Source of the DNA: Candidatus Kerfeldbacteria bacterium
Lineage (GTDB): Bacteria > Patescibacteriota > Patescibacteriia > UBA9570 > XYC2-FULL-38-9
NCBI GenBank assembly: GCA_043813585.1
Contig: JBDRKW010000002.1
Location: 19,182-83,181, forward strand
Direction: 5' to 3'
DNA: 64,000 nucleotides
The notes beneath the pieces are model-generated. The model did no database searches and was not told the DNA's origin. It saw nothing but the letters and a program-made list of their open reading frames with translations. This document shows, in pieces, positions 2,502-62,693 of this stretch (position 1 is the first letter of the stretch; each line of letters starts with the position of its first letter). The translations under genes were made by a program, and so were the position numbers.

Positions 2502-3536
2502 TTACGTGCGTTTCGATTCCTCAGCCGCTGTTGAATAATCCATGCGGCGGTCAAAAATGATCCGCTCCAGCCGTCCCCACGGAATCTTCTTTTCATCCTG
2601 CAGCGCCTCCAATATCTCGCCGCCACGCTTCTTAAAAAGCTCCTCTTTGACGCCCTCATGCCCGCCGATGGTCATGTACGAATAGATCAGCTGCGCCAGC
2701 TTGTCCTTTTGCTTGTATTGTATCGCCCGTTCCATCTGCTTCACCAGTTCAAGCTGCGTCTCATTATTATCGGGATTTCGGAACACCCGCAGGAATTCAT
2801 CGATTCTGGCGTCAACGCTGTGCTTAGTCGATTCAGCGTACGCCACATTCGCCACATCCGCTTCTATCTCCTCACGAATGACTGCCTGCAACTGGTGAAG
2901 AAGATCATTATTTTTTTCAAAATGCGCTTTTGAAATAGCACCCTGCACCAGCCATGAGGCTTTGTCCATCAACTTTTCGACATACGCAAATTTCAAGTCA
3001 TCCGTAAGCGTAGGTTTGTTGCTAACCTCTTCAGCAGGAGTGTACTTCGCGTGTTCCGGAACTGGCGGCTGTTGCTCACGCTGATAATACTGGGTCAGCG
3101 CTCCTTCATTTGACATCTGTTCTACCGTATCCGTCACCGCCTGCCGCAAATCATGGGCATACAACCCGGTCCGTTCAATGATGTCTTTTCTCATCTCTTC
3201 GTCAAGATCGCCTCCTTCGGTTGTCGTGGATTTGTAGATTGCTTCCTTCTTGGAAAATTCCTTTGATTCCTGAATAAAAGCCACGAACGTGGCATCCTCG
3301 CGCAACCTTTGCATCGTTCGCTCGTCAATCAGCTTGGCACTCACCATCTCATCCAGCGCCACTGCCACGTTGCGGTCAAAATTCTGTTCTGCCTGCTCCC
3401 ATTTGACGTCGTCATGCAGGTCCTGTTCCGCTTCTTCCTTTATTTCTTCCAGTGTTTCCGGCTCCGGTCGCGTTCCAAAAGGATCGTGTTCAGCCCTTGC
3501 CTTTCTTCTAAAAAATCCCAGGAATTCTTTTGCCAT
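2502..3536 (-). CDS. hypothetical acidic soluble protein (344 aa), no recognisable domain
   Basis: Long ORF with ATG at 3536 and no TM segments. E/D/K-rich. No motif I can assign. Confidence 0.5.
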   Translation of the reverse strand: MAKEFLGFFRRKARAEHDPFGTRPEPETLEEIKEEAEQDLHDDVKWEQAEQNFDRNVAVALDEMVSAKLIDERTMQRLREDATFVAFIQESKEFSKKEAIYKSTTTEGGDLDEEMRKDIIERTGLYAHDLRQAVTDTVEQMSNEGALTQYYQREQQPPVPEHAKYTPAEEVSNKPTLTDDLKFAYVEKLMDKASWLVQGAISKAHFEKNNDLLHQLQAVIREEIEADVANVAYAESTKHSVDARIDEFLRVFRNPDNNETQLELVKQMERAIQYKQKDKLAQLIYSYMTIGGHEGVKEELFKKRGGEILEALQDEKKIPWGRLERIIFDRRMDYSTAAEESKRT

Positions 3537-7943: not shown

Positions 7944-7985
7944 ACATGATTTATTTACTGTTTGTTTTATTCGGTCCGTCCATCA

Positions 7986-8043
7986 TAACCGAACAAAACC
8001 CGAATGTCCAGACATCCTGTGGATAACCGAACAAAACCCGAAT
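7986..8043 (-). promoter_or_regulatory. two identical 20-nt boxes (ATTCGGGTTTTGTTCGGTTA on the recA coding strand), 38 bp apart in the recA promoter; candidate SOS (LexA) operators
   Basis: Exact 20-mers at 7986-8005 and 8024-8043. The same box pair with the same 38-bp period occurs 35-92 nt upstream of lexA (32524-32581). The proximal box lies between the -35-like TGGACA and the -10 TATGAT. Confidence 0.6.
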
Positions 8044-8068: not shown

Positions 8069-8779
8069 TCATGCATCCTCTTCTGGAGCCTCATATAAGA
8101 TATTCCGAATTTCTACGCGTTCAGAACTGCGTTTGGACCGGGTGGTTATGCGAAGCGAATTTAAACCTTCATGCAAATAGACATCCTCGATAAAACGGCC
8201 GTCCGGATCAACCGAAATGCCTTGGCCGTTGATCTCCACAATTGCTTCCGGTTCGGTTTTACCACGAATAGTGATCTTCCGGTCGGCCACAATCACATCC
8301 TCTGTCGGATACTCAATCACGAGCTCGGGCGGGCTTAAAAGCTGCACGATCTCCCAGGAAAAATAGATCACCAGGAGCAGCACGACAATCCCGGCAACCC
8401 CGAACCTCAACAGTCGCGGTATCAGAAGCGGTTTGCGCTGATGCGGCGTCGATCCCGTACCCACCGGCTTATGCCGCTTCGATTCCTGCTTGCGCTGCAC
8501 GTCCGGATGGAACGCGCGGATCTCCCTTTTGTAGTCCTCTTCGATCTTCTCCCACCGCACGCCAAGTTCTCGGCAATACAGCTTGAGATAATTGGTCACA
8601 TAGACCGGCGACGGAAGGTCGCTATACCGGCCGGACTCCAGCGCCTCCAGATACCGCTGCGGCACCTTAATCGCCCTCGCAATCTCTGTCATCACCAAGC
8701 CCTGTGACTGGCGCGCCACTCGAAGCTGTTCACCGACTGTTTGATGCTGCCGTACCGGCTGCTGTTTAAAATTCGACAT
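8069..8779 (-). CDS. RodZ-like cytoskeleton protein (XRE-type HTH, one TM, C-terminal beta domain)
   Basis: The track ORF begins at GTG 8866 inside ftsK. ATG at 8779 (MSNFKQQPVRQHQTVGEQLRVARQSQGLVMTEIARAIKVPQRYLEALESG) gives the HTH, followed by TM GVAGIVVLLLVIYF. Overlaps the ftsK 3' end by 14 nt. Confidence 0.6.
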   Translation of the reverse strand: MSNFKQQPVRQHQTVGEQLRVARQSQGLVMTEIARAIKVPQRYLEALESGRYSDLPSPVYVTNYLKLYCRELGVRWEKIEEDYKREIRAFHPDVQRKQESKRHKPVGTGSTPHQRKPLLIPRLLRFGVAGIVVLLLVIYFSWEIVQLLSPPELVIEYPTEDVIVADRKITIRGKTEPEAIVEINGQGISVDPDGRFIEDVYLHEGLNSLRITTRSKRSSERVEIRNILYEAPEEDA

Positions 8780-11126
8780 TATTGCGATCTTCAGGATCAA
8801 GATCCTCCTGCGACTCCTCATCAGAATACTCGTCTTCCGGCTCATCTGGCTCCTCCGGCTCTTCACCCGGCTCTCCGATCATCGATTCTCCCGCCGCCTC
8901 GTCCTGCACAAGAATTTCACGCGGCTTCGCTCCGTCTGCCGGGCCGATAAATCCTTCTTCTTCCAGGATATCCAGAATACGCGCTGCTCGCGCATACCCA
9001 ACCCGCAGCCGTCGCTGCAAGAGCGATGCGGACGCTTTGCCCGCCTGCAAAATCACCTCTTTGGCATCATCAAGTAATTCATCGCTGTCTTCAGCTCCAC
9101 CGCTCACGCCCGAGATGCCTCTTTTACCGGTATTAGATTCCGTTACATCGCTGTCATATTCCGGCTTCTCCCGATTCCGCAGATAATCCACGACAGCATC
9201 AATGTCCTTGCTTTCCAGATGCGCGCCCTGCAGACGCTTCGGCCTGGACAGGGTTGCATCAATAAACAGCATATCGCCGCGGCCAAGCAGCTTCTCCGCT
9301 CCGGAAAAATCCAGGATTGTGCGCGAATCCACCTGCGACGCCACGGAAAACGCAATGCGCGCCGGCATATTCGCCTTGATCAGGCCGGTAATGACGTTGA
9401 CCGACGGACGCTGCGTTGCCAGCACCAAGTGGATGCCGACCGCACGCGCCATCTGCGCCAGCCGCACAATCGCCGCTTCAACCGAATTTGCAGCAACCGA
9501 CATTAGATCTGCCAATTCATCAATCACGAACACAATATACGTCATGCGCTCGTCTTCATCGACTTTGCTGTTGTATTCATCAATGCTTCGCGCACCGGCC
9601 CGTTGCAGCATTTCATACCGCCGATCCATCTCCGCCACCGTCCATTTCAACGAATTCACTGTTTTTTCAATGTCAGTAATCACCGGCGTCAGCAGATACG
9701 GGATATCGTTATAGTTCGACAACTCCACGCGCTTTGGATCCACCAGGATAAACTTGAGGTCATCCGGAGAATTCTGGTACATGAGCCCGCAGATAACACT
9801 GTTGATACAAACCGACTTACCTGAACCGGTAGCACCCGCAATCAACAGATGCGGCATGCCTGATAAAGACGTGACAAACGGCTTGCCCGCAACATCTTTA
9901 CCTAAACACAGTGTGAGATTGTCTTTGCGTTTCTTGAATACTTTCGAAGTGAGGATCTGTCGCAGTGTTACTGTTGCAATCGCCTTGTTCGGCACTTCAA
10001 TGCCGACTAACGCCTTGCCAGGGATCGGCGCTTCAATCCTGATTGGAAATGCAGCCAGCGCCAACGAAATATCGTTATGCAATGTCGTGATCTGCGTAAG
10101 CTTTACACCCTCTTGCGGGGCCAACGTGTACTGCGACACCATCGGGCCGACATTTACTTCGCCCATCTCAACCGGAATACCGAAGCTCTCCAACGTCAAT
10201 CGAATTTTTTCCTTATTCTCCTCAATGTCGCCGCTGGTCGGCTTCTCATTGCGTTCCGATAGCAGGCTCAACGGTATTTCACTCCAGCCGCGCCGTTTAG
10301 ACCGCTTTGGAATAAACGACATCTGTTCCAGATCCTTGTCTGTCGCCTGCTCCTGCCCGGTATGCTCTACTTCTTTGGTGGAAAACGCCGGCTCTTCTTC
10401 CGGTTCGCCATCAACGCTCCCTTCTTCTGATTCATCGTCCTCATCTTCCTCGGCATCTTCTTTTGCTGCGCCGATCTTATACCCGTTCATACGCGCATGC
10501 AGCCGCGTCTTCAGCCAATTCCATACGCCGCCGAAAAAACCGAACTCGCGCACCCGCGTAATGAGCGCAGGTATCGACAGGCTCAACATTACAGAAACTG
10601 ATGCGATAAACAGGCCGAGCAACACGATAATCGCCACCCAGATGCCGGCGTATTTTATTAGCGGAATGGAAAACACGATTCCCAGGTAGCCGCCGCCTTT
10701 GCCGGCTTTAGCCGCTTCGGTGAAATCAACATACGGGATAAACAGGTGCAGAAGCGCCAGCCCGGACAACAGGAAAAACGCCAGTCCGATCCAGTTCCAC
10801 ATGCGGATTTCGTATTTATCGCCATTCAGGAACAGATACGCGAGCGCCGCAATGATAAACGGCACGATATACCGGCCCCAACCAAACACCCAGCCAAGGA
10901 TCTCGTCTACCCATACACCGAAATCGCCGGCCGCATTCACAAACGACAATAACGACACCGCTGAAACTGCGAATAAGAAAATAACGAGCAGTCCGCGCTG
11001 CGCACCGCCGTCATCTTCATCCCACGTATATTTCTTACGCTGCTGTTTTGGCTCCGCCTCTTCGTCCTTTGGTGGACGCCCGCGTTTCTTTGCAGGCTCT
11101 TGCTTTAAGGTCTTTCTCTTCGCCAT
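8766..11126 (-). CDS. ftsK: DNA translocase FtsK/SpoIIIE
   Basis: 786 aa. N-terminal TM helices, Walker A LLIAGATGSGKSV, gamma winged-helix (SLLQRRLRVGYARAARILDILEEEGFIGP), then an acidic tail. Confidence 0.95.
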   Translation of the reverse strand: MAKRKTLKQEPAKKRGRPPKDEEAEPKQQRKKYTWDEDDGGAQRGLLVIFLFAVSAVSLLSFVNAAGDFGVWVDEILGWVFGWGRYIVPFIIAALAYLFLNGDKYEIRMWNWIGLAFFLLSGLALLHLFIPYVDFTEAAKAGKGGGYLGIVFSIPLIKYAGIWVAIIVLLGLFIASVSVMLSLSIPALITRVREFGFFGGVWNWLKTRLHARMNGYKIGAAKEDAEEDEDDESEEGSVDGEPEEEPAFSTKEVEHTGQEQATDKDLEQMSFIPKRSKRRGWSEIPLSLLSERNEKPTSGDIEENKEKIRLTLESFGIPVEMGEVNVGPMVSQYTLAPQEGVKLTQITTLHNDISLALAAFPIRIEAPIPGKALVGIEVPNKAIATVTLRQILTSKVFKKRKDNLTLCLGKDVAGKPFVTSLSGMPHLLIAGATGSGKSVCINSVICGLMYQNSPDDLKFILVDPKRVELSNYNDIPYLLTPVITDIEKTVNSLKWTVAEMDRRYEMLQRAGARSIDEYNSKVDEDERMTYIVFVIDELADLMSVAANSVEAAIVRLAQMARAVGIHLVLATQRPSVNVITGLIKANMPARIAFSVASQVDSRTILDFSGAEKLLGRGDMLFIDATLSRPKRLQGAHLESKDIDAVVDYLRNREKPEYDSDVTESNTGKRGISGVSGGAEDSDELLDDAKEVILQAGKASASLLQRRLRVGYARAARILDILEEEGFIGPADGAKPREILVQDEAAGESMIGEPGEEPEEPDEPEDEYSDEESQEDLDPEDRNNVEF

Positions 11127-14445: not shown

Positions 14446-15930
14446 TTATTTCTTTGTGCTCTTTTTTTTCGTGCTCTGCTTCACTTTCTTGAGCCGTTTG
14501 CGCATTGCCTGATGATGCGCCTGGATCTGGTTGAGCAGTTCTGTTTCGTCGATAATATCATGCCGGCGGTTGGAAATGATAAATTCGCCGTTGATCATGA
14601 GGTCGCGGACATTACGGCCGCCGTGGGTGATCATGTTGCCGATTATGGTGACCGGCTTGTCTTCCGCATACGGGATAAAGCCGCGGTCGCGCACTTTCCA
14701 GAATGCCAGGTCTGCCTGGAACCCCGGCAGAATCCGGCCGCGCGTCTTCAGGCCGAGAATCTGCGCCGCATTATAGGTCATCATCTTAAAGAGCTCTTCA
14801 TAATAAACAACGTACTTGTCCTGGTGCATAATGCGGGCCTGTAGCGCTTCCGATAAAATATCGAGTGAGTTCTTGGAGATGACGCTGTCGGTTCCAAGTG
14901 CAATCTGCCCTTCCGCCCCGTACTTGGCAAACAACGGATATTGAAACTCGCCGCTTTTGTGCAGCTTGTTCGATGTCGGCAGGTGGACCACGCCGATATT
15001 GTACTTCTTAATCATCGCCACTTCCTCCTCCGTCAGGTTCACGCAATGGGAAAGAATCGAGCGGGAATTCGCCAGTCCGTACTTCTGTAGTGTTGGAATG
15101 GTAAGGTCATCGTGGACACGAAGGTTCTCCGCAACCGAATCGCGCGTTTCTGCCGCATGGGTGGTGAATATTGCCTTGTACTTCTTACAAATGGCTGCGA
15201 CCTTCTTCAGAATGGCCGGATCGGCCTTATGCAATGTATGCACTGCAACTGCGACCTGCGTACTGTAGTTTTTCTTATTCTTCAACAGCTTCTCTACATA
15301 CGCCGGCGTATTCTCCGGATGTGAATTCGATACGGCAGAAATTGCATTAATCACATTTTGATTCACCAATTTCGATGCCTCCTCAATCGCATCGAACACA
15401 GCATAGTGTGAAAGCGTTGTGGTGATGCCGTTCTTTTGCTCTTCCGTCAGGTCGCCGACTGCGGAGATGAAAAAATCCTCGTCCGTCATGTTGCTTTCGA
15501 GGTTGAACATGTCCTTCAACGACTTTTCCAGGTTCTCGCCCTTTTCCAGCATGAGCGACGAGCGCAGCATATACATGGGCGGATGGGAATGGGCGTTAAT
15601 GAAGCCCGGCGTGACGGCAAGGCCGCCGCGGAGTCCGGCATCAAAAACAAGATCGACTTTGTTCAGATCGATCTTTCTCTTTTTCGGATCAAAAATTTCG
15701 GTGATGACGCCGTTTTTGATATAGATGGACCGGTCCTTGATGACCTTCACATCCCCTTTTTCATCAGCCGTAATAATGTATTTCGGCCGGTGGATAACAA
15801 TGGTTTTTGCTTTTGGCGTTGACGTGAGGTGCGTGTAGCGTGACCGCTTCTCGCGCAGCGGAAATGGGATGCCGCCGTCCTTCACGCGCAGTATCGCATT
15901 CGCGATAGGTGCGAACTCTTTTGGTATCAT
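14446..15930 (-). CDS. metal-dependent amidohydrolase (chlorohydrolase/deaminase family; guanine- or SAH/MTA-deaminase-like)
   Basis: 494 aa. HxH metal motif GFINAHSH. Fold-typical downstream His/Asp residues. Sits in a purine-gene context. Confidence 0.7.
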   Translation of the reverse strand: MIPKEFAPIANAILRVKDGGIPFPLREKRSRYTHLTSTPKAKTIVIHRPKYIITADEKGDVKVIKDRSIYIKNGVITEIFDPKKRKIDLNKVDLVFDAGLRGGLAVTPGFINAHSHPPMYMLRSSLMLEKGENLEKSLKDMFNLESNMTDEDFFISAVGDLTEEQKNGITTTLSHYAVFDAIEEASKLVNQNVINAISAVSNSHPENTPAYVEKLLKNKKNYSTQVAVAVHTLHKADPAILKKVAAICKKYKAIFTTHAAETRDSVAENLRVHDDLTIPTLQKYGLANSRSILSHCVNLTEEEVAMIKKYNIGVVHLPTSNKLHKSGEFQYPLFAKYGAEGQIALGTDSVISKNSLDILSEALQARIMHQDKYVVYYEELFKMMTYNAAQILGLKTRGRILPGFQADLAFWKVRDRGFIPYAEDKPVTIIGNMITHGGRNVRDLMINGEFIISNRRHDIIDETELLNQIQAHHQAMRKRLKKVKQSTKKKSTKK

Positions 15931-18203: not shown

Positions 18204-22169
<3,966 letters not shown>

Positions 22170-31639: not shown

Positions 31640-32344
31640 ATGAACTCACTGCAGCGCGCATACTTCCACCTGTTCCTGGGCATGGTGCTCAAGGATGGGA
31701 TGGACCTGGACGAGGAGGCCCTGAACGGCTTCTGTATGACGATCCGTAAGGACAACGGCGAGACGACCGAGGTGGTCGAGGAGCCGGAGCCCGAAGAGCC
31801 CGCGGCGGAGCCGGAGGAGCCCGCGGCGGACGAGGTGGTCGAGGAGACCCCGGAGGATGGCGAGCCAGAGGTGGTCGACGAGGTGGCCGAGGAACCCGCG
31901 CCCGAGCTGGATGCGGAGCCCGAGGCCGAGGTGGTCGACGAGGTGGCCGAGGAGCCCGTGGCGGAGCCCGAGCCCGAGAACGACGGCAGCGACGAGGTGG
32001 TCGAGGAGCCGGAGCCCGAAGAGCCCGCGGCGGACGAGACCACGCCCGAGGAGACCCCGGAGGACGACGGCAACAACGATGCCGATCCCGCCGAGGAGCC
32101 CGAGGGTGGCGACGAGGAGACCCCGGACGAGGAAGCCCCCGCCGAGGAGCCCGAGGGTGGCGACCCCGAGCCGGAGGACGACGGCAACGACGAGGAGTCC
32201 GAGGACAACGGAGAGCCCGAGGACGAGAGCGGCGAAGACGACCCCGATGACGGGGATGGTGATGACAACAACGGCGGGGACGACGATGACCCGGCCGGCG
32301 ACGAGGACGGTGGCGACGAGCCCAATGAGGACGACGTCACCTGA
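31640..32344 (+). CDS. hyper-acidic Glu/Asp/Pro-rich tandem-repeat protein with a short structured N-terminus
   Basis: AGAGGA RBS before ATG 31640. MNSLQRAYFHLFLGMVLKDGMDLDEEALNGFCMTIRKDNGETT, then about 190 aa of EVVDEVAEEPAPE.../EEPEPEEPAA repeats. About 60-nt DNA tandem duplications. GC about 68%. Confidence 0.55.
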   Translation: MNSLQRAYFHLFLGMVLKDGMDLDEEALNGFCMTIRKDNGETTEVVEEPEPEEPAAEPEEPAADEVVEETPEDGEPEVVDEVAEEPAPELDAEPEAEVVDEVAEEPVAEPEPENDGSDEVVEEPEPEEPAADETTPEETPEDDGNNDADPAEEPEGGDEETPDEEAPAEEPEGGDPEPEDDGNDEESEDNGEPEDESGEDDPDDGDGDDNNGGDDDDPAGDEDGGDEPNEDDVT

Positions 32345-32495: not shown

Positions 32496-32522
32496 AAGCG
32501 GGATCATTCCCGCTTTTGTTTA
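32496..32522 (+). terminator. Rho-independent terminator about 150 nt downstream of the acidic-protein gene
   Basis: AGCGGGA-tcatt-CCCGCT followed by TTTGTTT. A perfect 9-bp hairpin GGGAGGTGC-ccttg-GCACCTCCC (32349-32371) lies right after the stop codon. Confidence 0.65.
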
Positions 32523-32523
32523 T

Positions 32524-32581
32524 ATTCGGGTTTTGTTCGGTTATCCACAGGTAGAATTGACATTCGGGTTTTGTTCGGGTA
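32524..32581 (+). promoter_or_regulatory. two 20-nt boxes (ATTCGGGTTTTGTTCGGTTA and ATTCGGGTTTTGTTCGGGTA), 38 bp apart, upstream of lexA; candidate SOS operators
   Basis: Boxes at 32524-32543 and 32562-32581. Identical (one mismatch) to the recA promoter boxes. The proximal box is preceded by -35-like TTGACA (32557-32562). Confidence 0.6.
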
Positions 32582-32615
32582 CCCTTACTCTACCCTATAA
32601 ATAAAGGCCAAACAT

Positions 32616-48886: not shown

Positions 48887-49951
48887 ATGCTCGACCGAGA
48901 ATCAATCAGCAAGCTCGATTCACAACAGATGCTCTCATCCATTGAGGTGCTCGACAAGCAATGCACTGACGCATGGAACGCCACAAAGGGAATGGAATTC
49001 CACGACGCGTACAAGAATATTTCCAACATTGTGCTCTTTGGCATGGGCGGTTCAGCGCTCGGCATCCACGTCGTAAAAACGCTCTTCAGCGACCGGCTGA
49101 ACGTGCCGGTAGAAATCGTAAATGACTATTCCATTCCGGCCACTGTCAACGGACAGACGCTTGCAGTCCTTTCCAGTTATTCCGGCACCACGGAAGAGGT
49201 GGTGACTGTCAGTAAAACAATACTGGAAAAGACAAAAAACGTATTTGTGGTGGCTACCGGCGGCTTCCTCCAGGAGTTTTCAGAGGAGCAGCACCTGCCG
49301 GCCTATATCTTCCATCCTGAATTCAACCCAAGCAACCAGCCGCGCATGGCAGTGGGGTATTCCGTCATGGCCATTCTTGGCGCGTTCACTTCGCTGGGAC
49401 TCCTTTCTGTCACAGATAAGGAAGTTGAGAAGATGGCCTCATTTTTACAGCAGCTGCACGAAACGCTTGGCGCAGATGTTCCGGAGGAACAGAATCCGGC
49501 AAAAAAAATCGCTGCGGAAATCAACGGCAGGCTCCCGATATTTATCAGCTCCGAATTCCTCGTCGGCAGCACGCATGTCTTTACCAACCAGGTAAATGAA
49601 AACGGCAAATGCTTTGCCGGCCGGTTCACCATTCCGGAAATGAACCATCATTTAATTGAAGGGTTCCAGCAGCCGCGCGAATCCCTGGACCGACTCCTTT
49701 TTGTGTTCATCACCAGCGCGTTCTACCATGACCGAAACCAAAAACGGTACGAAGTGACGCGCGGCGTCGTAGAAAAAAACGGCATTGCCGCAACCGAAAT
49801 CAAACTCACCGGAGCGAACCCGTTCATCCAGGCGTTTGAGCTGCTCCTGTTTGGGAGCTACGTCTCATTTTATCTGGCCATACTGACGCAAACCGACCCC
49901 TCTCCAATACCGAATGTCGACCTGTTGAAGAATGAGCTGAAAAAATCTTGA
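48887..49951 (+). CDS. bifunctional phosphoglucose/phosphomannose isomerase (SIS-domain PGI/PMI family)
   Basis: 354 aa. NIVLFGMGGSALG, SYSGTTEE, and tandem SIS domains. Confidence 0.7.
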   Translation: MLDRESISKLDSQQMLSSIEVLDKQCTDAWNATKGMEFHDAYKNISNIVLFGMGGSALGIHVVKTLFSDRLNVPVEIVNDYSIPATVNGQTLAVLSSYSGTTEEVVTVSKTILEKTKNVFVVATGGFLQEFSEEQHLPAYIFHPEFNPSNQPRMAVGYSVMAILGAFTSLGLLSVTDKEVEKMASFLQQLHETLGADVPEEQNPAKKIAAEINGRLPIFISSEFLVGSTHVFTNQVNENGKCFAGRFTIPEMNHHLIEGFQQPRESLDRLLFVFITSAFYHDRNQKRYEVTRGVVEKNGIAATEIKLTGANPFIQAFELLLFGSYVSFYLAILTQTDPSPIPNVDLLKNELKKS

Positions 49952-49976
49952 CACTTCAAACACCCCTTGCTAAGGT
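49948..49976 (+). promoter_or_regulatory. sigma70-like promoter TTGACA-17-TAAGGT overlapping the PGI/PMI stop
   Basis: TTGACA at 49948-49953. 17-nt spacer. TAAGGT at 49971-49976. Confidence 0.4.
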
Positions 49977-50005
49977 CACATCGAGTTCCCGCGGGGAGGC
50001 TTCTG

Positions 50006-50030
50006 GCGGGTTCTACTCCCGCTGCACCCA
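50006..50030 (+). other. tmRNA/tRNA 3'-end-like fragment (T-arm plus acceptor 3' strand) in the leader of the downstream membrane-protein gene
   Basis: GCGGGTTCTACTCCCGC-TGCACCC-A resembles the E. coli ssrA 3' end GCGGGTTCAACTCCCGC-CAGCTCC-A. No complementary 5' acceptor strand, D arm or anticodon arm upstream. Confidence 0.35.
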
Positions 50031-50075
50031 TGCTTGTCAGCGGGAGTTTCTGTATCCACATGCATCAAGATCCGT

Positions 50076-51674
50076 ATGTACAGAAAATCATTATTCCTCG
50101 CATTAAAAAAATGGTGGCTCGATAATCCGTGGATTGCCCCGCTGCTTATTTTTTGCATTGCTGTCGCCGCTTTCTCCCTCTGGCTCGCGTCCCCGACCTT
50201 TGCGGATCCGGATTCCTTTTACCACATCAAGATCTCGGAGATGATGATCAAGAAGCGCCAGGCAATTACGGAATTCCCTTGGCTGCAATTTACGACGCTG
50301 AAAAATGCGTACGTTGACCACCACCTCCTCTATCACGTCTACCTCATACCGTTTATTCTGGCGCTCGGCACGACGGTCGGGGTCAAGCTGGCCACTATCC
50401 TGCTTGGGTCGGGCACCGTGACCTTGTTCTGCTGTCTGCTGCAAAAAATGAAGGTTCGGTATTCGCTTTTATTCTCAATACTACTGCTTTTCTCCTACTC
50501 GTTCGCGTTCCGGATGGGGCTATCGAAAGCTCCCGCAGTCGGATTCCTGTTCCTGACGGGCGGGTTCCTGCTTATGGCAATGAAACAGCATCGCCTCCTT
50601 ATCCTCACGAGCTTTCTGTTTGTATGGTCCTATGGCGGTTTTCTGCTGCTGCCGATCCTTGCCGGTATCTATTCCCTCATTGGGGCCTTCAGGTACGTTC
50701 AAAAAAATGGAAAGGCGTTCGAACGAAAAAAAATGCTCCGTTTGTTCCTGCCTCTCGCGGCAACCGTCGCAGGCACTGCAGCCGGACTGCTCATTCACCC
50801 TTCATTCCCGCAACACATCATCTTTCTCTGGCAACAGATAATTGAAATCGGGCTCATTAACCAGCAAAACGTCATCGGCGTGGGAAACGAATGGTATCCA
50901 TCCGAAATTATCACATTAATCTCGGATAACATACTGGTGGCCGGATTGCTCGCTTCCGGCCTGATTGCTTTTTTTGCCACCACAAAAAAACAGACGACGG
51001 CTTCAATTACTGCTGGTGTCCTGGTATTCATTTTCTTCATTTTTACACTGAAATCGCGCCGATATTCGGAATACTTTATACCATGGGCCGTCCTGTTCTC
51101 CGCGCTCTCCCTTCATCTCAGCGGCGCACTCGATGCCCTTCCCCGCCTGCTGAAAAAAGCAAAGCAAAAAATGAGCTCCAACGCCGTAACCGCGACCGCC
51201 GGAGCCGTTGCCGCCATCTACTGCCTGTTCATCTTCGGCGGTGTTTGTGCAATGGGCGCAGAAAATGTTTACGACTCCCACCATCATGGCATTCCACTGA
51301 CCGACTTTGCAGACGCCGGTAAATGGCTGCGCACCCATAGCAATAAAGGCGATATTGTGTTTCACAGCAACTGGGATATTTTCCCGCAGATGTTCTACCA
51401 CGTGGCACGCGACCGGTTTATTGTCGGCCTTGACCCGACCTTTATGTACAACTACGACCAGGAGTTGTATTGGGAATGGGTGGATATAACTAAAGGAGAA
51501 CAAACAAAAAATCTATATGAAATCATCGGGGACGATTTCAACGCGCGATTCGTCGTTATTGAAAACGACCATACGGCGATGATGAACAACGTCATCGCTG
51601 ACGGCCGCTTTAAGAAAACATACGAAGACGCCTCATACACCATATTCCGTTTACCGCGTGAAAACGGAAACTAA
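50076..51674 (+). CDS. polytopic membrane glycosyltransferase-like protein (GT-C/ArnT-PMT-like fold); family assignment tentative
   Basis: The track start is TTG 50034; first ATG at 50076 (MYRKSLFLALKK...). About 11 TM helices. Early periplasmic loop FADPDSFYH. Soluble C-terminal domain. Confidence 0.5.
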   Translation: MYRKSLFLALKKWWLDNPWIAPLLIFCIAVAAFSLWLASPTFADPDSFYHIKISEMMIKKRQAITEFPWLQFTTLKNAYVDHHLLYHVYLIPFILALGTTVGVKLATILLGSGTVTLFCCLLQKMKVRYSLLFSILLLFSYSFAFRMGLSKAPAVGFLFLTGGFLLMAMKQHRLLILTSFLFVWSYGGFLLLPILAGIYSLIGAFRYVQKNGKAFERKKMLRLFLPLAATVAGTAAGLLIHPSFPQHIIFLWQQIIEIGLINQQNVIGVGNEWYPSEIITLISDNILVAGLLASGLIAFFATTKKQTTASITAGVLVFIFFIFTLKSRRYSEYFIPWAVLFSALSLHLSGALDALPRLLKKAKQKMSSNAVTATAGAVAAIYCLFIFGGVCAMGAENVYDSHHHGIPLTDFADAGKWLRTHSNKGDIVFHSNWDIFPQMFYHVARDRFIVGLDPTFMYNYDQELYWEWVDITKGEQTKNLYEIIGDDFNARFVVIENDHTAMMNNVIADGRFKKTYEDASYTIFRLPRENGN

Positions 51675-53659
51675 TCCAGCAGCCCGTCCAGACCAATAGA
51701 CGTGGAGTTATCAGGGTCAATTATCGCCGCGCGCATCTTGAGTGTCTGCAATAATTCTTCCGAGGGAACCACCGGGCCGAAAACTGCCGCAACCCGCGCA
51801 GCCCCGGCAGGATGGACAACCGGAAGATGCATTGCATAGCTCTCGCCGGGCAGCCATGTATGCGTCGGGACAACCGAAAATCCAAGCGCATACTGATGTT
51901 CCTTGACCCGTTTTCCCTCAGAATCAAACCATTGCAGCTCAAGCTGCTGGTCATCGTCTGTCCATCCGCCGTTCATCTTTTCAAACGCGAGAGAAAGAGT
52001 GCCGCGATCATCGCCGTCAGGCGCATAGTTCCAGCCAAGAAACATCAAATCACCCTGCAAATCAGTGCGCAGGGGCTGCTTAATAGTCGCAGGATTATTT
52101 GTCCAAAATTGCTGCTCTTGATCCACTAACTCCTTGCGCGCAAAAACAAACGCATCCTGAGTTTGGTACGCGGGTATTAAATCATTGTCGTCAAGCACCT
52201 GCTGGACGCGCTGCCACGTATGCTGAATCTCCTCATCAGGAATATTTATTGCGGAATCGAAAATAACGTCATGCTCCATGATCAAACGCGAAACGCCTGT
52301 CGGCGATTGATAGGGGGTATCGGAAAAATGCATTTTTCCCGTAAACAATCCAAGGTTGGAATACAAATGCTCCCGATGCGATAAGAGCGGCCAAAACCGC
52401 CGCGACGCCATCACCGCTTCAGTATCGCCAATGGATTGAACAATCGTGCGATATCCATCCACATCGCGATGATACCATTCATCCACAGCGTCGGGAATTT
52501 CACGGAGCGGTGAAAACAGGCAAAAAAACATGATGAAATATGCCAGCAACGACAGCCCGACGGCATACGACAGCGCATATACTCTCCCCAACCGTGAACA
52601 GTTGATCCGCTTCAGCAGCTTCAAAAAAACAGGAATCCCGTAGACGGCAGAAATGAGCAGCCACGGAAAAATAACTGCAGCATGGTGGCTGGCCACAATC
52701 GCCCCGATGATATTCCTGTCAATCATAAAATAAAACAAAAACGGCCCGAGCGCCGGAACGAGGTAGCGCACCTTGAAGAATGAAAGCATGCCGATGCTCG
52801 CAATGAGATAAAATAATGCAATGGCATGGTCATTGCCAAATAACTTTGCAATCGAGCTGACGGGATGAAAGAGAAAAGCCCGCGCCACTTCCCCCGGGGT
52901 GCTGCCGTAATGTTCAAAATACATCATGAACTTCACGGTATCATCCGGGGAAAAGAACGATGCCACCCACAACATGCTAATGAGCCAAACGATGCTCAAC
53001 GCCGCGATTGCCGCGCCATGAAACCAGTACTTCCTCCCGTGCCGCAGCACAACCAATACCCCGACGCCTATGGTCATGAACGCCAAATCTTCACGAAGCA
53101 GCAGCAGCAGGACAACCAGGCAGTAGGTTGCGGCCCATTTCTTCCTGTCCAGTGCCAGCCATAACCAAAAAACGACGGGGATGACAAACGGCAGCATATG
53201 GAATTCAAACAGATTCATCTGCTGAACGGTCGGATGGATCAAATACAGCACACTCACGGCTGCCGCAATATATTCCGCCTTATTAACCCGGCCAACGAGC
53301 GCACGCTTCGCTATGAAATACAGCGGAAGGGCGCCGCTTCCAAGAGCAATGGTCTGCGCGACCAATAGCGTTATCGGATGCCCGGCAACCCAGTACAACG
53401 GCACAAATGCCATTAATAGCCACGACCGGTGATCCACCAGGTATGAATACGGGTTAAACGAATACTCATACCAGCGAAAATGGGAACTGTTCCATAGGAC
53501 CTGGTCAAATATTGCAAGATCAAATGTCGGGTACTGAAAATTAAAATATTTTGCAATGCACACTGCAGAAAAAACGACGCAGTAGGCAATACAAGAAACC
53601 CATACGATGCGGGGTATGCGCAGATGCGGCTTCATGACAGACAGCATGATTTTTCCCAT
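51671..53659 (-). CDS. DUF2079-family integral membrane protein
   Basis: 662 aa. N-terminal YPTFDLAIFDQVLWN (DUF2079 signature). More than 10 TM helices. Large C-terminal soluble domain. Confidence 0.65.
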   Translation of the reverse strand: MGKIMLSVMKPHLRIPRIVWVSCIAYCVVFSAVCIAKYFNFQYPTFDLAIFDQVLWNSSHFRWYEYSFNPYSYLVDHRSWLLMAFVPLYWVAGHPITLLVAQTIALGSGALPLYFIAKRALVGRVNKAEYIAAAVSVLYLIHPTVQQMNLFEFHMLPFVIPVVFWLWLALDRKKWAATYCLVVLLLLLREDLAFMTIGVGVLVVLRHGRKYWFHGAAIAALSIVWLISMLWVASFFSPDDTVKFMMYFEHYGSTPGEVARAFLFHPVSSIAKLFGNDHAIALFYLIASIGMLSFFKVRYLVPALGPFLFYFMIDRNIIGAIVASHHAAVIFPWLLISAVYGIPVFLKLLKRINCSRLGRVYALSYAVGLSLLAYFIMFFCLFSPLREIPDAVDEWYHRDVDGYRTIVQSIGDTEAVMASRRFWPLLSHREHLYSNLGLFTGKMHFSDTPYQSPTGVSRLIMEHDVIFDSAINIPDEEIQHTWQRVQQVLDDNDLIPAYQTQDAFVFARKELVDQEQQFWTNNPATIKQPLRTDLQGDLMFLGWNYAPDGDDRGTLSLAFEKMNGGWTDDDQQLELQWFDSEGKRVKEHQYALGFSVVPTHTWLPGESYAMHLPVVHPAGAARVAAVFGPVVPSEELLQTLKMRAAIIDPDNSTSIGLDGLLD

Positions 53660-54684: not shown

Positions 54685-54711
54685 GCAAAGCGCTTCTTCA
54701 TTTGTATGAAC

Positions 54712-54737
54712 AAAAAACTCCCCTGCGGGAGTTTTTT
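54712..54737. terminator. bidirectional terminator between convergent pilin-like genes 2 and 3
   Basis: AAAAAA-CTCCC-ctgc-GGGAG-TTTTTT. Confidence 0.75.
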
Positions 54738-54755
54738 CATAATTCTGTCAGTAAT

Positions 54756-62189: not shown

Positions 62190-62693
62190 ATGGCCGACAA
62201 AAAGAAGCACTCCTACAAGCATCCATTCGAATGCGAAAAATGCAGCAAGCACTCCTCGGATGATTTTGAATATTTCGGGCCGACAGACGACTGGATGATC
62301 CTCTACCCGAAAGAACAGGCGATCCACATTCACTTCGGATGGGCAACGCACAGCGAAAAAGAATCGACAGCAGAAACAGAATGGCTGAATGATTTTGCAT
62401 CAAAGCACTGGTTTCCAAAGTATCCGGATAAAAAATTCTTCATCATGGTAGATATGACCCGTTCAGATGACAGCGAATTGCCGTCGCAGCGTTCAATCCA
62501 GCTATACAAAGAACTGTTTCGAAACAAACAAAACAGCAAAACCGTATTCTACGGCGTTACGCATTCCATGAAATTCTTTTTGAAGATGGTAACAAGCCTC
62601 TCAAAGACACCGAAAAAAATCGTTATTGTGGACACATTGGATCAAGCGCTGGAAAAATATGATGAATGGGCTAAAACGAACGTAAGGACTTAG
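62190..62693 (+). CDS. hypothetical protein (167 aa); leaderless transcript likely
   Basis: TATAAT at 62175-62180 is only 9 nt upstream of ATG 62190. N-terminal C/H-rich segment (HPFECEKCSKH). No family assigned. Confidence 0.5.
   Translation: MADKKKHSYKHPFECEKCSKHSSDDFEYFGPTDDWMILYPKEQAIHIHFGWATHSEKESTAETEWLNDFASKHWFPKYPDKKFFIMVDMTRSDDSELPSQRSIQLYKELFRNKQNSKTVFYGVTHSMKFFLKMVTSLSKTPKKIVIVDTLDQALEKYDEWAKTNVRT

Follow-up and report, generated by a model that had tools for sequence, protein, structure and literature searches.

A conserved hairpin RNA upstream of an STT3/PglB-like gene in Patescibacteria, possibly part of an attenuator-type leader

Classical attenuators of the trp and pyrBI type rely on 1:2, 2:3 and 3:4 pairings, and the lambda boxB/N, BglG-SacY RAT, PyrR and TRAP sites are antiterminator or terminator hairpins bound by proteins. 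A different precedent is the HMP-PP riboswitch (thiS motif), a 'terminator-embedded aptamer' in which a terminator hairpin tied to specific genes, and abnormally conserved in its loop, proved to be a sensor (Atilho et al. 2019, PMC6478431). We analysed a 64-kb stretch of DNA (hereafter the window) from a Candidatus Kerfeldbacteria MAG, in which the 124-nt intergenic spacer between a PGI/PMI gene and a GT-C gene holds a hairpin that is very probably a structured RNA, conserved and linked in cis, and not a tRNA relic.

The upstream gene (48887-49951, + strand) encodes a bifunctional-type PGI/PMI with a SIS domain (Pfam bact-PGI_C, E 3.7e-36). The downstream gene (50076-51674, + strand) encodes an oligosaccharyltransferase-like membrane protein of GT-C fold, 532 aa long, identical to NCBI ABIG66_00530 (Candidatus Kerfeldbacteria) and without a Pfam match. 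The best PDB matches found by Foldseek for its AlphaFold model (pLDDT 89, pTM 0.88) are STT3/PglB/AglB (E 5.6e-10, TM 0.66), and the modelled product thus appears to resemble STT3/PglB-type oligosaccharyltransferases. Both flanking genes are as the first-pass annotation had described them. The comparison set consisted of 80+ orthologous loci, all apparently from Patescibacteria as judged by gene order, with 80 species representatives. A PGI homologue is present in 55 of the 80 loci, mostly directly upstream of the GT-C gene, and ruvC-yebC are close by in 64; the order ruvC-yebC / PGI / GT-C / DUF2079 / T4SS pilin recurs in a distant relative (L085) whose GT-C protein is 54% identical. No cognate regulator gene was found among the 22 neighbouring ORFs scanned.

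The conserved hairpin, P2 (CUCCCGCUGCAC-CCAUGCUU-GUCAGCGGGAG; 50016-50046, + strand), is formed by segment 3 (50016-50022) and segment 4 (50040-50046) and is delimited by covariation and by models. It was found in 46 of the 80 species representatives, once per locus, on the gene strand and just upstream of the GT-C gene. The stem, of 10-11 bp, covaries: in the 43 loci used for this analysis, 88.2% of the stem cells are paired, against 41-52% in slid controls, changes on both sides affect 158 cells, where shuffles give 50 (0/500), and the covariation score reaches 0.883, where they give 0.26 (0/500). In the stem G.U is far more frequent (23) than A.C (4), and the selected structure is therefore an RNA on the + (gene) strand. 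The tip, CCAUGCUUG (50028-50036, + strand), lies 40 nt upstream of the GT-C ATG in the window; it is near-invariant in the same 43 loci, with six invariant columns and three conserved at 90% or more, and is the presumed recognition site. In 702 kb of loci the exact 9-mer was counted 47 times, against about 5 expected, and most copies lie just upstream of the GT-C gene; four more family members carry variant tips.

The window hairpin shows every feature by which we define the motif, namely 10-11 in-register pairs, the tip NN-CCAUGCUUG, and a position on the + strand, no farther than ~400 nt 5' of a GT-C orthologue or of the operon containing it. It scores 42.1 bits with model R1, and with model R2, whose construction left out the window and its clade, it is the top match in the 64 kb (24.7 bits, E ~7e-5). 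Over the 766 kb searched, each positive locus gave one strong model match, always on the + strand and just upstream of the GT-C gene or operon. P2 is followed by a U-rich tail, UUUCUGUAU (50047-50055, + strand; 5 U in 7), a weak terminator-like tract. At least 5 U in 7 follow the hairpin in 26 of 43 members, and at least 4 in 36 of 43; the tract of the window clade is a weak one (UUUCUGU), and no call was made at 50047-50055 by a terminator scan that allows loops of 3-8 nt, the nominal loop of the window hairpin being 11 nt.

The motif matches no catalogued RNA family. Rfam 15 at gathering thresholds has no match in the window, the best match in 49700-50300, Tymo_tRNA-like, reaches 18.5 bits where the gathering score is 40, and seven other hairpin-carrying loci gave no match at E<=1. 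Literature searches with the tip 9-mer returned unrelated primer matches only, and we found no Patescibacteria RNA-motif paper describing the hairpin. A metagenome scan with the window-clade pattern TCCCGC-N5-CCATGCTTG-N3-GCGGGA retrieved four loci, all near-duplicates of loci in the comparison set. A search for a tip partner or pseudoknot within 60 nt was also negative, the longest complement averaging 5.5 upstream (5.6 in shuffles) and 5.3 downstream (5.3 in shuffles). CCUACGUUG is an example of a change of the tip CCAUGCUUG that keeps the stem.

About 34 of the 80 orthologous loci have no hairpin, at least 8 of them with PGI and GT-C genes nearly abutting, and the element is therefore dispensable. 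It is not merely a terminator of the PGI gene: 14 hairpin-bearing loci have no PGI, their upstream gene being a divergent yebC; in many loci a promoter-like sequence of its own lies just upstream of the hairpin; and in L047 the hairpin is followed by a unit of two genes, a methyltransferase-like one and the GT-C gene. Co-occurrence of the hairpin with its neighbours yebC, ruvC, DUF2079, pilin and PGI was not informative. The 5' regions differ between clades, and within the clade with a TTGCG-17-TAGAGT promoter RNAalifold recovers the known hairpin only, with no shared 5' domain. In 23 of 42 loci an apparent leaderless GT-C promoter, TAYAMT-N5-9-ATG, lies downstream of the hairpin; there the hairpin is outside the mRNA leader and could act only by blocking read-through, by occluding the promoter, or in trans.

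In the window and its close relatives the hairpin has a predicted promoter on its 5' side (49948-49976, + strand), with a -35 box TTGACA at 49948-49953, within which the TGA stop codon of the PGI/PMI gene (49949-49951) falls, a 17-nt spacer and an extended -10 element TGcTAAGGT at 49968-49976; the spacer ends with TG at 49968-49969, before TAAGGT at 49971-49976. In each of the ten close relatives examined (L081, L083, L084, L085, L001, L002, L041, L003, L006 and L004), TTGAC(A/G/T)-N17-18-TAnnnT is found ahead of the element. The promoter is absent from the list given by a consensus scan because its -10 box matches at only 3 of 6 positions. The first-pass annotation had read the same TTGACA-17-TAAGGT promoter and made the region the 5' leader of the GT-C gene; the letters are there, and recurrence of the pattern at the same place in the ten relatives suggests that the call holds up. 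Its fallback, that only a GC-rich leader hairpin might be present, was right as to the leader and wrong as to 'only', for the hairpin belongs to a covarying RNA motif that is common among the Patescibacteria loci examined.

The leader of the window clade contains further segments able to compete for the arms of P2. Segment 1 (UUCCCGC; 49986-49992, + strand) pairs in MFE folds either with segment 2, forming stem P1, or with a GGAGG stretch. The latter (GGAGG, 49995-49999) is part of the purine stretch GGGGAGG in the P1 loop (49993-49999, + strand), which is complementary to CUCC in segments 1 and 3. Segment 2 (GGCGGG; 50005-50010, + strand) is in these folds the partner common to segment 1 (P1) and to segment 3, with which it forms GCGGG-TTCTACT-CCCGC (50006-50022, + strand), an antiterminator-like alternative pairing, the 'T-arm' of the first-pass annotation; TGCACCC-A follows directly at 50023-50030, both strings being present as first described. 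MFE folding of nascent RNA that stops short of segment 4 gives the 'T-arm' hairpin, in the window and in eight relatives, and in the nascent-RNA folds GGAGG pairs with segment 1. The full-length folds use P1 and P2, the 'T-arm' being absent from the full-length MFE fold of the window; in L002 the alternative fold is the full-length MFE. The window leader folds better than its shuffles (z = -3.05).

This segment architecture is conserved in the window clade, with L003 and L006 lacking a clear segment 2. Segments 1 and 2 vary in a complementary manner (CCCCG/CGGGG in L081, GGUUCUGC/GCGGGACC in L083, GUCCCG/CGGGAC in L084), and GGAGG is kept in the window, L081, L083, L084, L085, L001, L002, L041 and L005. 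This stretch was also considered as a ribosome-binding site, which is unlikely because only ~4 of the 37 window genes use one; no properly spaced start codon follows it. GCGGG-N6-7-CCCGC is present in 7 of the 8 closest relatives and is shifted to CGGG-N9-CCCG in L084, and the loops are always unrelated, the intervening sequences in orthologous loci being GGCTGCT, ACCCGCT, AATCGCT, AACTGCT, AAAACT and AACACT. The leader thus offers two exclusive pairings, 2:3 and 3:4, one of which uses the terminator arm, as in attenuators and riboswitches; the 2:3 arms are invariant (CCCGC/GCGGG) in the ~10 sequences, and the 2:3 pairing is a prediction from folds and conserved arms.

We propose that this locus consists of a promoter and a structured 5' leader RNA of attenuator type before the STT3/PglB-like gene, with the tip read by a factor, and we give this statement as a whole, mechanism included, a probability of roughly one half. 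The stem is free to vary provided that pairing is kept, and the tip CCAUGCUUG is held almost constant across the Patescibacteria loci examined; the hairpin and its U-rich tract look like an intrinsic terminator or attenuator before the GT-C gene. In the window clade, four to five mutually complementary segments permit two exclusive folds. In fold A, segment 1 would pair with GGAGG and segment 2 with segment 3 (the 'T-arm'), and the conserved hairpin would be blocked. In fold B, segment 1 would pair with segment 2 and segment 3 with segment 4, and the conserved hairpin so formed would stop or occlude transcription. We infer that a protein or small-ligand factor recognises the tip and shifts the balance between the folds, which would determine the amount of transcription extending into the GT-C gene.

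One might speculate that the element is a very compact sensor housed within a terminator, whether a terminator-embedded riboswitch like the HMP-PP class or the target of a dedicated RNA-binding protein, coupling the supply of activated or phosphorylated sugar to expression of the STT3/PglB-like oligosaccharyltransferase and forming a regulatory RNA class so far observed in Patescibacteria alone; this is a tentative suggestion, and the odds are against it. Production of mannose-6-P/fructose-6-P is the role of the upstream gene.

Possible, but unlikely, is a role as an ordinary intrinsic terminator or insulator, the loop being conserved as duplex DNA because a transcription factor controlling the GT-C promoter binds to CCATGCTTGG. 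An operator would here have been placed, in a compact genome, in the one part of the terminator able to vary freely, and such a scheme would accommodate the U tracts after many copies of the hairpin and is compatible with G.U selection on the stem as well. CCATGCTTGG is palindromic at 8 of its 10 positions, and where a leaderless -10 box lies downstream of the hairpin (by 21-76 nt, in the 23 of 42 loci mentioned above) the conserved 9-10 bp would fall ~45-100 bp upstream of the start, in the activator-binding zone. Against a DNA site, the stem flanks the motif in all ~46 loci, including those without a co-directional upstream gene and those without a U tract, and the distance from the hairpin to the GT-C start varies from 18 to 412 nt across loci. 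In the window clade there is no promoter downstream of the hairpin, so that the site would lie ~45 nt inside the transcript. Operators, moreover, usually have conserved half-sites and a variable centre, the opposite of what is found here.

We consider it improbable that the locus encodes an independent small RNA of ~35-100 nt, lying beside the GT-C gene, whose 3' end is the conserved hairpin and whose tip mediates an action in trans. In some clades, for example L012/24/26/28 and, with the TTGCG-17-TAGAGT promoter, L034/43/48/51/57/72/74, a self-contained unit of promoter, short 5' region, hairpin and U tract does precede a distinct GT-C promoter, and the failure to find a local partner for the tip within 60 nt agrees with action in trans. 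Yet the strict linkage to one gene and one strand across very divergent genomes is what cis elements typically show, the window clade has no visible GT-C promoter apart from that of the leader, the 5' regions are not conserved between clades, and no recurrent CAAGCAUGG target was found in the loci.

The reading from which the analysis started, that of a tRNA or tmRNA 3'-end fragment left by an integrase at the border of an old island, is effectively refuted. It had its origin in a superficial look of T-arm plus acceptor, in that a 5-bp G+C stem and a 7-nt loop starting with TTC are followed by ...CCCA; GCGGGTTCTACTCCCGCTGCACCCA is the tmRNA/tRNA 3' end that it would require. ARAGORN found no tRNA or tmRNA in the window and none in 49801-50200, the intergenic region, at a relaxed 80% score threshold (-ps80), a positive control being detected, and Rfam has no tRNA/tmRNA match in 49700-50300 even at E<=10. 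The T-loop consensus is T54-Psi55-C56-R57-A58, with a purine at position 57 in tRNAs and tmRNAs alike, whereas the loop UUCUACU has U there. The supposed acceptor strand, TGCAC-CCA, is in fact the upper stem and the first bases of the near-invariant tip of P2. Relatives whose GT-C proteins are only 46-59% identical have the same stem at the same place with loops unlike a T-loop, which is not the behaviour of a decaying att scar; since close relatives keep the pairing with unrelated loops, the T-loop likeness is due to chance. The att part of the claim fares no better: the 17-mer has no second copy in the 64 kb at up to 3 mismatches and belongs to no direct-repeat family, and no integrase is found among the 20 ORFs in 39-64 kb (by Pfam ExoVII, HAD, CofD, NTP-transferase, FemAB, RuvA, ATP-grasp, 7TM-transglutaminase, RuvC, YebC, DUF2079, pilin, SBP and similar, and one without a Pfam match). 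The neighbourhood is one of conserved housekeeping synteny, and the supposed island cargo, DUF2079 and the T4SS pilin, follows the GT-C gene in the same order in the distant relative.

That the tip AUG starts a leader peptide or the true GT-C N-terminus, as the ATG within the near-invariant tip (50030) and the leaderless or SD-less initiation of this organism might suggest, is ruled out by frame and stop codons and has next to no likelihood left, for this ATG is in the GT-C frame in only 5 of 12 clade members, with stops intervening in two of these, and the tip columns are near-fixed even at would-be third codon positions, between flanks that covary as RNA pairs. For 5S rRNA loop C (CCCAUGCCGAAC), SRP RNA, dif/parS sites and HUH-nuclease origin hairpins no match is apparent, and the DNA-level options among them (dif/parS, HUH) are disfavoured because the element is single-copy, gene-linked and has RNA-type G.U pairs.

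In Patescibacteria (CPR), which are of ultra-small size and for the most part uncultured, surface glycosylation is believed to be important for attachment to the host. We know of no regulatory RNA that has been studied experimentally in them, and our literature search found none. Their genomes largely do without Shine-Dalgarno sites and leaderless mRNAs are frequent. A gene-specific structured RNA, conserved across many genera before an oligosaccharyltransferase-like gene that has no Pfam assignment, gives a concrete and testable handle on the control of a surface-modifying enzyme in these reduced genomes. There is also a lesson for annotation, in that a T-arm-like G+C hairpin can be one state of an arm-swapping leader.

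Compared with known systems, the likeness to a tRNA or tmRNA T-arm is limited to the 5-bp GCGGG/CCCGC stem and the 7-nt UUC loop, followed by CCA. With the boxB/N, RAT, PyrR and TRAP sites the element shares a short hairpin in which the stem varies and the apical sequence is fixed, and for which reading by a factor is proposed here too; no sequence similarity is apparent, and the fixed sequence lies in the terminator's own loop instead of overlapping an antiterminator. Like the trp and pyrBI attenuators, the leader has four consecutive, near-identical complementary arms (UUCCCGC / GCGGGAA / CUCCCGC / GCGGGAG), of which 2:3 and 3:4 are exclusive, with a U-rich tail after 3:4. Unlike them it has no leader peptide ORF and stands in a genome that makes hardly any use of ribosome-binding sites, and its near-invariant tip is without a counterpart there. 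It differs from the HMP-PP riboswitch in having no Rfam match, in tip sequence, phylum and regulated gene, in that a search within 60 nt of the tip gave no pseudoknot partner, and in that the gene has, in many lineages, a promoter of its own downstream of the hairpin. What the two have in common is a terminator-type hairpin with an abnormally conserved loop, association with one functional gene class, and an upstream segment able to compete for the 5' arm. The leader described here would thus be a second example of the rare 'terminator with conserved loop' pattern, of which the earlier one revealed a hidden riboswitch.

Upstream of the GT-C gene (50076-51674, + strand), which encodes an oligosaccharyltransferase-like membrane protein, lies what comparative sequence evidence suggests, with a probability of about 0.9, is a conserved cis-linked structured RNA. 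We compared 80 loci from GTDB species representatives with GT-C orthologues 34-54% identical, and added four closer loci from Logan and ENA assemblies; searches in these genomes extended about 4 kb from the GT-C gene. Of the 80 loci, 55 have a PGI homologue, mostly immediately 5' of the GT-C gene. The spacer contains a recurrent hairpin (50016-50046 in the window), whose stem varies between genomes and whose tip is CCATGCTTG. Exact matches to the tip 9-mer number 47 in 702 kb, where about 5 are expected, and almost all of them are on the + strand immediately 5' of the GT-C gene. When 43 distinct copies are aligned without gaps, six tip columns are invariant and three at least 90% conserved. 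Across the 11-pair stem, 88.2% of cells are paired, versus 41-52% with the partner slid by 1-3 columns; 158 cells are changed on both sides (50 in shuffles), and none of 500 shuffles attained the covariation score of 0.883 (0.26 in shuffles). G.U pairs exceed A.C pairs by 23 to 4, so the selected structure is RNA, on the GT-C gene strand. A near-invariant tip could also be read as a DNA operator lodged within the terminator loop, which we consider unlikely.

In a search of 766 kb, a covariance model of the hairpin gave each positive locus a single strong match, of 29-52 bits, and produced no other; its next-best matches, at about 24 bits, were generic terminators. Four extra members have variant tips (L004 UGAUGCUUG, L005 CCAUGCUGAG, L011 CCGUGUUUG, and L047), and with these included the hairpin is found in 46 of the 80 loci. 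A second model, trained without the window or its clade of closest relatives, also retrieves members of that clade and ranks 50008-50056 first in the window (24.7 bits, E about 7e-5; runner-up 19.6 bits). Between DUF2079 and the pilin gene, at 54706-54743, a symmetric hairpin that lacks the conserved tip scores about 19.6 bits with the hairpin model on each strand, in the manner of a generic bidirectional terminator.

In the window, the stop TGA of the upstream PGI/PMI gene (48887-49951, bact-PGI_C match) sits within a -35 box, TTGACA (49948-53), with TGcTAAGGT seventeen bases further on (49968-76). Downstream of this -10 box come complementary segment 1, UUCCCGC (49986-92); GGGGAGG (49993-99); segment 2, GGCGGG (50005-10), then UUCUA; segment 3, CUCCCGC (50016-22), then UGCAC; the tip CCAUGCUUG (50028-36), then UCA; and segment 4, GCGGGAG (50040-46), directly followed by UUUCUGUAU, ahead of the GT-C ATG at 50076. 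The first-pass annotation had described a 'T-arm' here, and its letters and spacing were correct, as GCGGG (50006-10)-TTCTACT-CCCGC (50018-22) is present. Its 3' arm, CCCGC, also serves the conserved hairpin as 5' arm, and the supposed acceptor strand, TGCAC-CCA, corresponds to that hairpin's upper stem and initial tip bases. The eight closest relatives share the promoter, a UUCCCGC-like segment 1, the GGAGG stretch and a GCGGGAA-like segment 2, followed by 2-7 nt, CUCCCGC, N5, CCAUGCUUG, N3, GCGGGAG and a U-rich tail; L005 has the same segment layout. Between GCGGG and CCCGC the relatives carry GGCTGCT, ACCCGCT, AATCGCT, AACTGCT, AAAACT or AACACT, so that the T-loop likeness of TTCTACT is accidental and peculiar to the window genome. 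When the RNA is folded without segment 4, the minimum free energy structure in the window and the eight relatives is the 2:3 hairpin (the 'T-arm'), with GGAGG as the partner of segment 1; at full length the RNA adopts 1:2 plus 3:4, although in L002 the alternative fold stays optimal. The full window leader is stabler than shuffles (z = -3.05). The predicted topology is that of an attenuator, its 2:3 pairing being supported by conservation, not covariation.

In many loci the hairpin begins 5-40 nt past the PGI stop codon, with a U tract behind it; loci in which PGI and GT-C abut do not have it. Hairpin loci without PGI have a divergent yebC upstream in 14 of 14 cases, so that no co-directional gene is there for the hairpin to terminate, and in L047 the hairpin (3207-3255) precedes a methyltransferase-like gene and GT-C. 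What is constant is that the hairpin precedes the GT-C transcription unit, not that it marks the 3' end of PGI. The L047 ORF (3263-3889, 208 aa, membrane-anchored) is methyltransferase-like by eye, and a similar ORF end lies 5' of GT-C in L030 and L035, both without the hairpin.

A TTGAC-N17-19-TAnnnT promoter lies 33-67 nt 5' of the hairpin in 11 of 42 loci, and in 23 of the 42 a TGnTATACT or TATAAT box lies downstream of it, 5-9 nt 5' of the GT-C ATG, a spacing that implies a leaderless mRNA. An SD-like motif is present at -15 to -5 in only about 4 of 37 window ORFs, and in many of them a TATAAT or TATACT box stands 6-8 nt 5' of the ATG (among the start regions examined, 8766-11126 -, 14446-15930 -, 51671-53659 - and 62190-62693 +), implying widespread leaderless mRNAs in this genome. 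The TGnTATACT-N6-8-ATG pattern also occurs 5' of GT-C orthologues in other Patescibacteria. The window clade has no -10 box 6-8 nt 5' of the GT-C ATG, so its GT-C mRNA probably starts from the leader promoter. A separate clade (L034:3798-3913, L043, L048, L051, L057, L072, L074), in which yebC and the GT-C gene diverge, has a conserved TTGCG-17-TGCTAGAGT promoter (TAGAGT) in the interval separating the two, and a 5' region of about 70 nt that contains a conserved ACGAAA...CGAU stretch and for which the seven sequences gave no consensus fold. Transcription from this promoter would yield an RNA of some 100 nt ending in the CCAUGCUUG hairpin. The element might also be taken for a trans-acting small RNA, a reading we find improbable.

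That the 'T-arm' is the 3' end of a tRNA or tmRNA, left by an integrase as an att relic, has next to no probability. ARAGORN found no tRNA or tmRNA across the 64-kb window, nor in the spacer at a relaxed 80% score threshold, with a control tRNA detected; Rfam gave no match in the whole window at gathering scores and only noise over 49700-50300 at E<=10 (top, Tymo_tRNA-like, at 18.5 bits where the gathering score is 40). T-loops carry a purine at position 57, where this loop has U. A 96-nt 'tRNA-Gly(gcc)' called by ARAGORN at relaxed 90% (-ps90) at 20848-20943 (-), inside a 1321-aa ORF (18204-22169), is almost certainly a false positive. Nor was a second copy of the repeat found: the 17-mer has no further match in the window at up to 3 mismatches, and none of the window's direct repeats includes it. 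The 20 ORFs of 39-64 kb are housekeeping or envelope genes, with no integrase. The flank had been proposed as an old island; the order 7TM-transglutaminase / RuvC / YebC / PGI / GT-C / DUF2079 / T4SS-pilin is repeated in a relative with a 54%-identical GT-C protein, and ruvC-yebC is close by in 64 of 80 orthologous loci, which argues against an island. A coding role for the element is all but ruled out by reading frames and stop codons. The ruvC-yebC-PGI-GT-C neighbourhood is common to Patescibacteria/Kerfeldbacteria MAGs and many GTDB-representative MAGs titled 'uncultured Gammaproteobacteria bacterium' (L001, L002, L010 and L023 included), titles that appear to be mislabels.

The window belongs to a Candidatus Kerfeldbacteria (Patescibacteria/CPR) MAG, and its GT-C protein (532 aa) is identical to NCBI ABIG66_00530, encoded on a 133-kb contig. 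No Pfam family matches this protein. Its confident structure model (pLDDT 89) best superposes on STT3/PglB/AglB oligosaccharyltransferases (E 5.6e-10, TM 0.66), ahead of ALG9, PMT and AftB, and it has invariant motifs, DPD and DHH among them. The gene converges on a DUF2079 membrane-protein gene (51671-53659, -) with a 4-nt overlap, a pairing kept in relatives. Elsewhere in the window, a module of two copies of the 21-mer ATAACCGAACAAAACCCGAAT, 38 nt apart with CCTGTGG between them, occurs at 7985-8043 (+) and 32519-32584 (-); its second copy continues into a -10-like box, TATTAC or TATAAA, and the module resembles a promoter/operator shared by two transcription units. Degenerate coding repeats rich in Glu, Pro and Asp (units GAGCCCGAG...GGTGGTCGA) extend over 31750-32330, within an ORF on one strand or on both, and a G+C-rich (0.65) stretch with repeats is found at 16-18 kb.

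As to how the structured RNA acts, regulated termination or read-through has, at best, an even chance. In this preferred reading, a promoter would be followed by an attenuator-type leader, whose terminator-like hairpin would bear a factor-recognition tip. No local pairing partner for the tip was found, which points to an external factor. Rfam 15 holds nothing resembling the hairpin, we found no paper describing it, and searches excluded membership in the HMP-PP family or any Rfam family. Its nearest precedent is the HMP-PP riboswitch, a class recognised because a gene-specific terminator combined a competing fold with a loop of abnormal conservation (PMC6478431).
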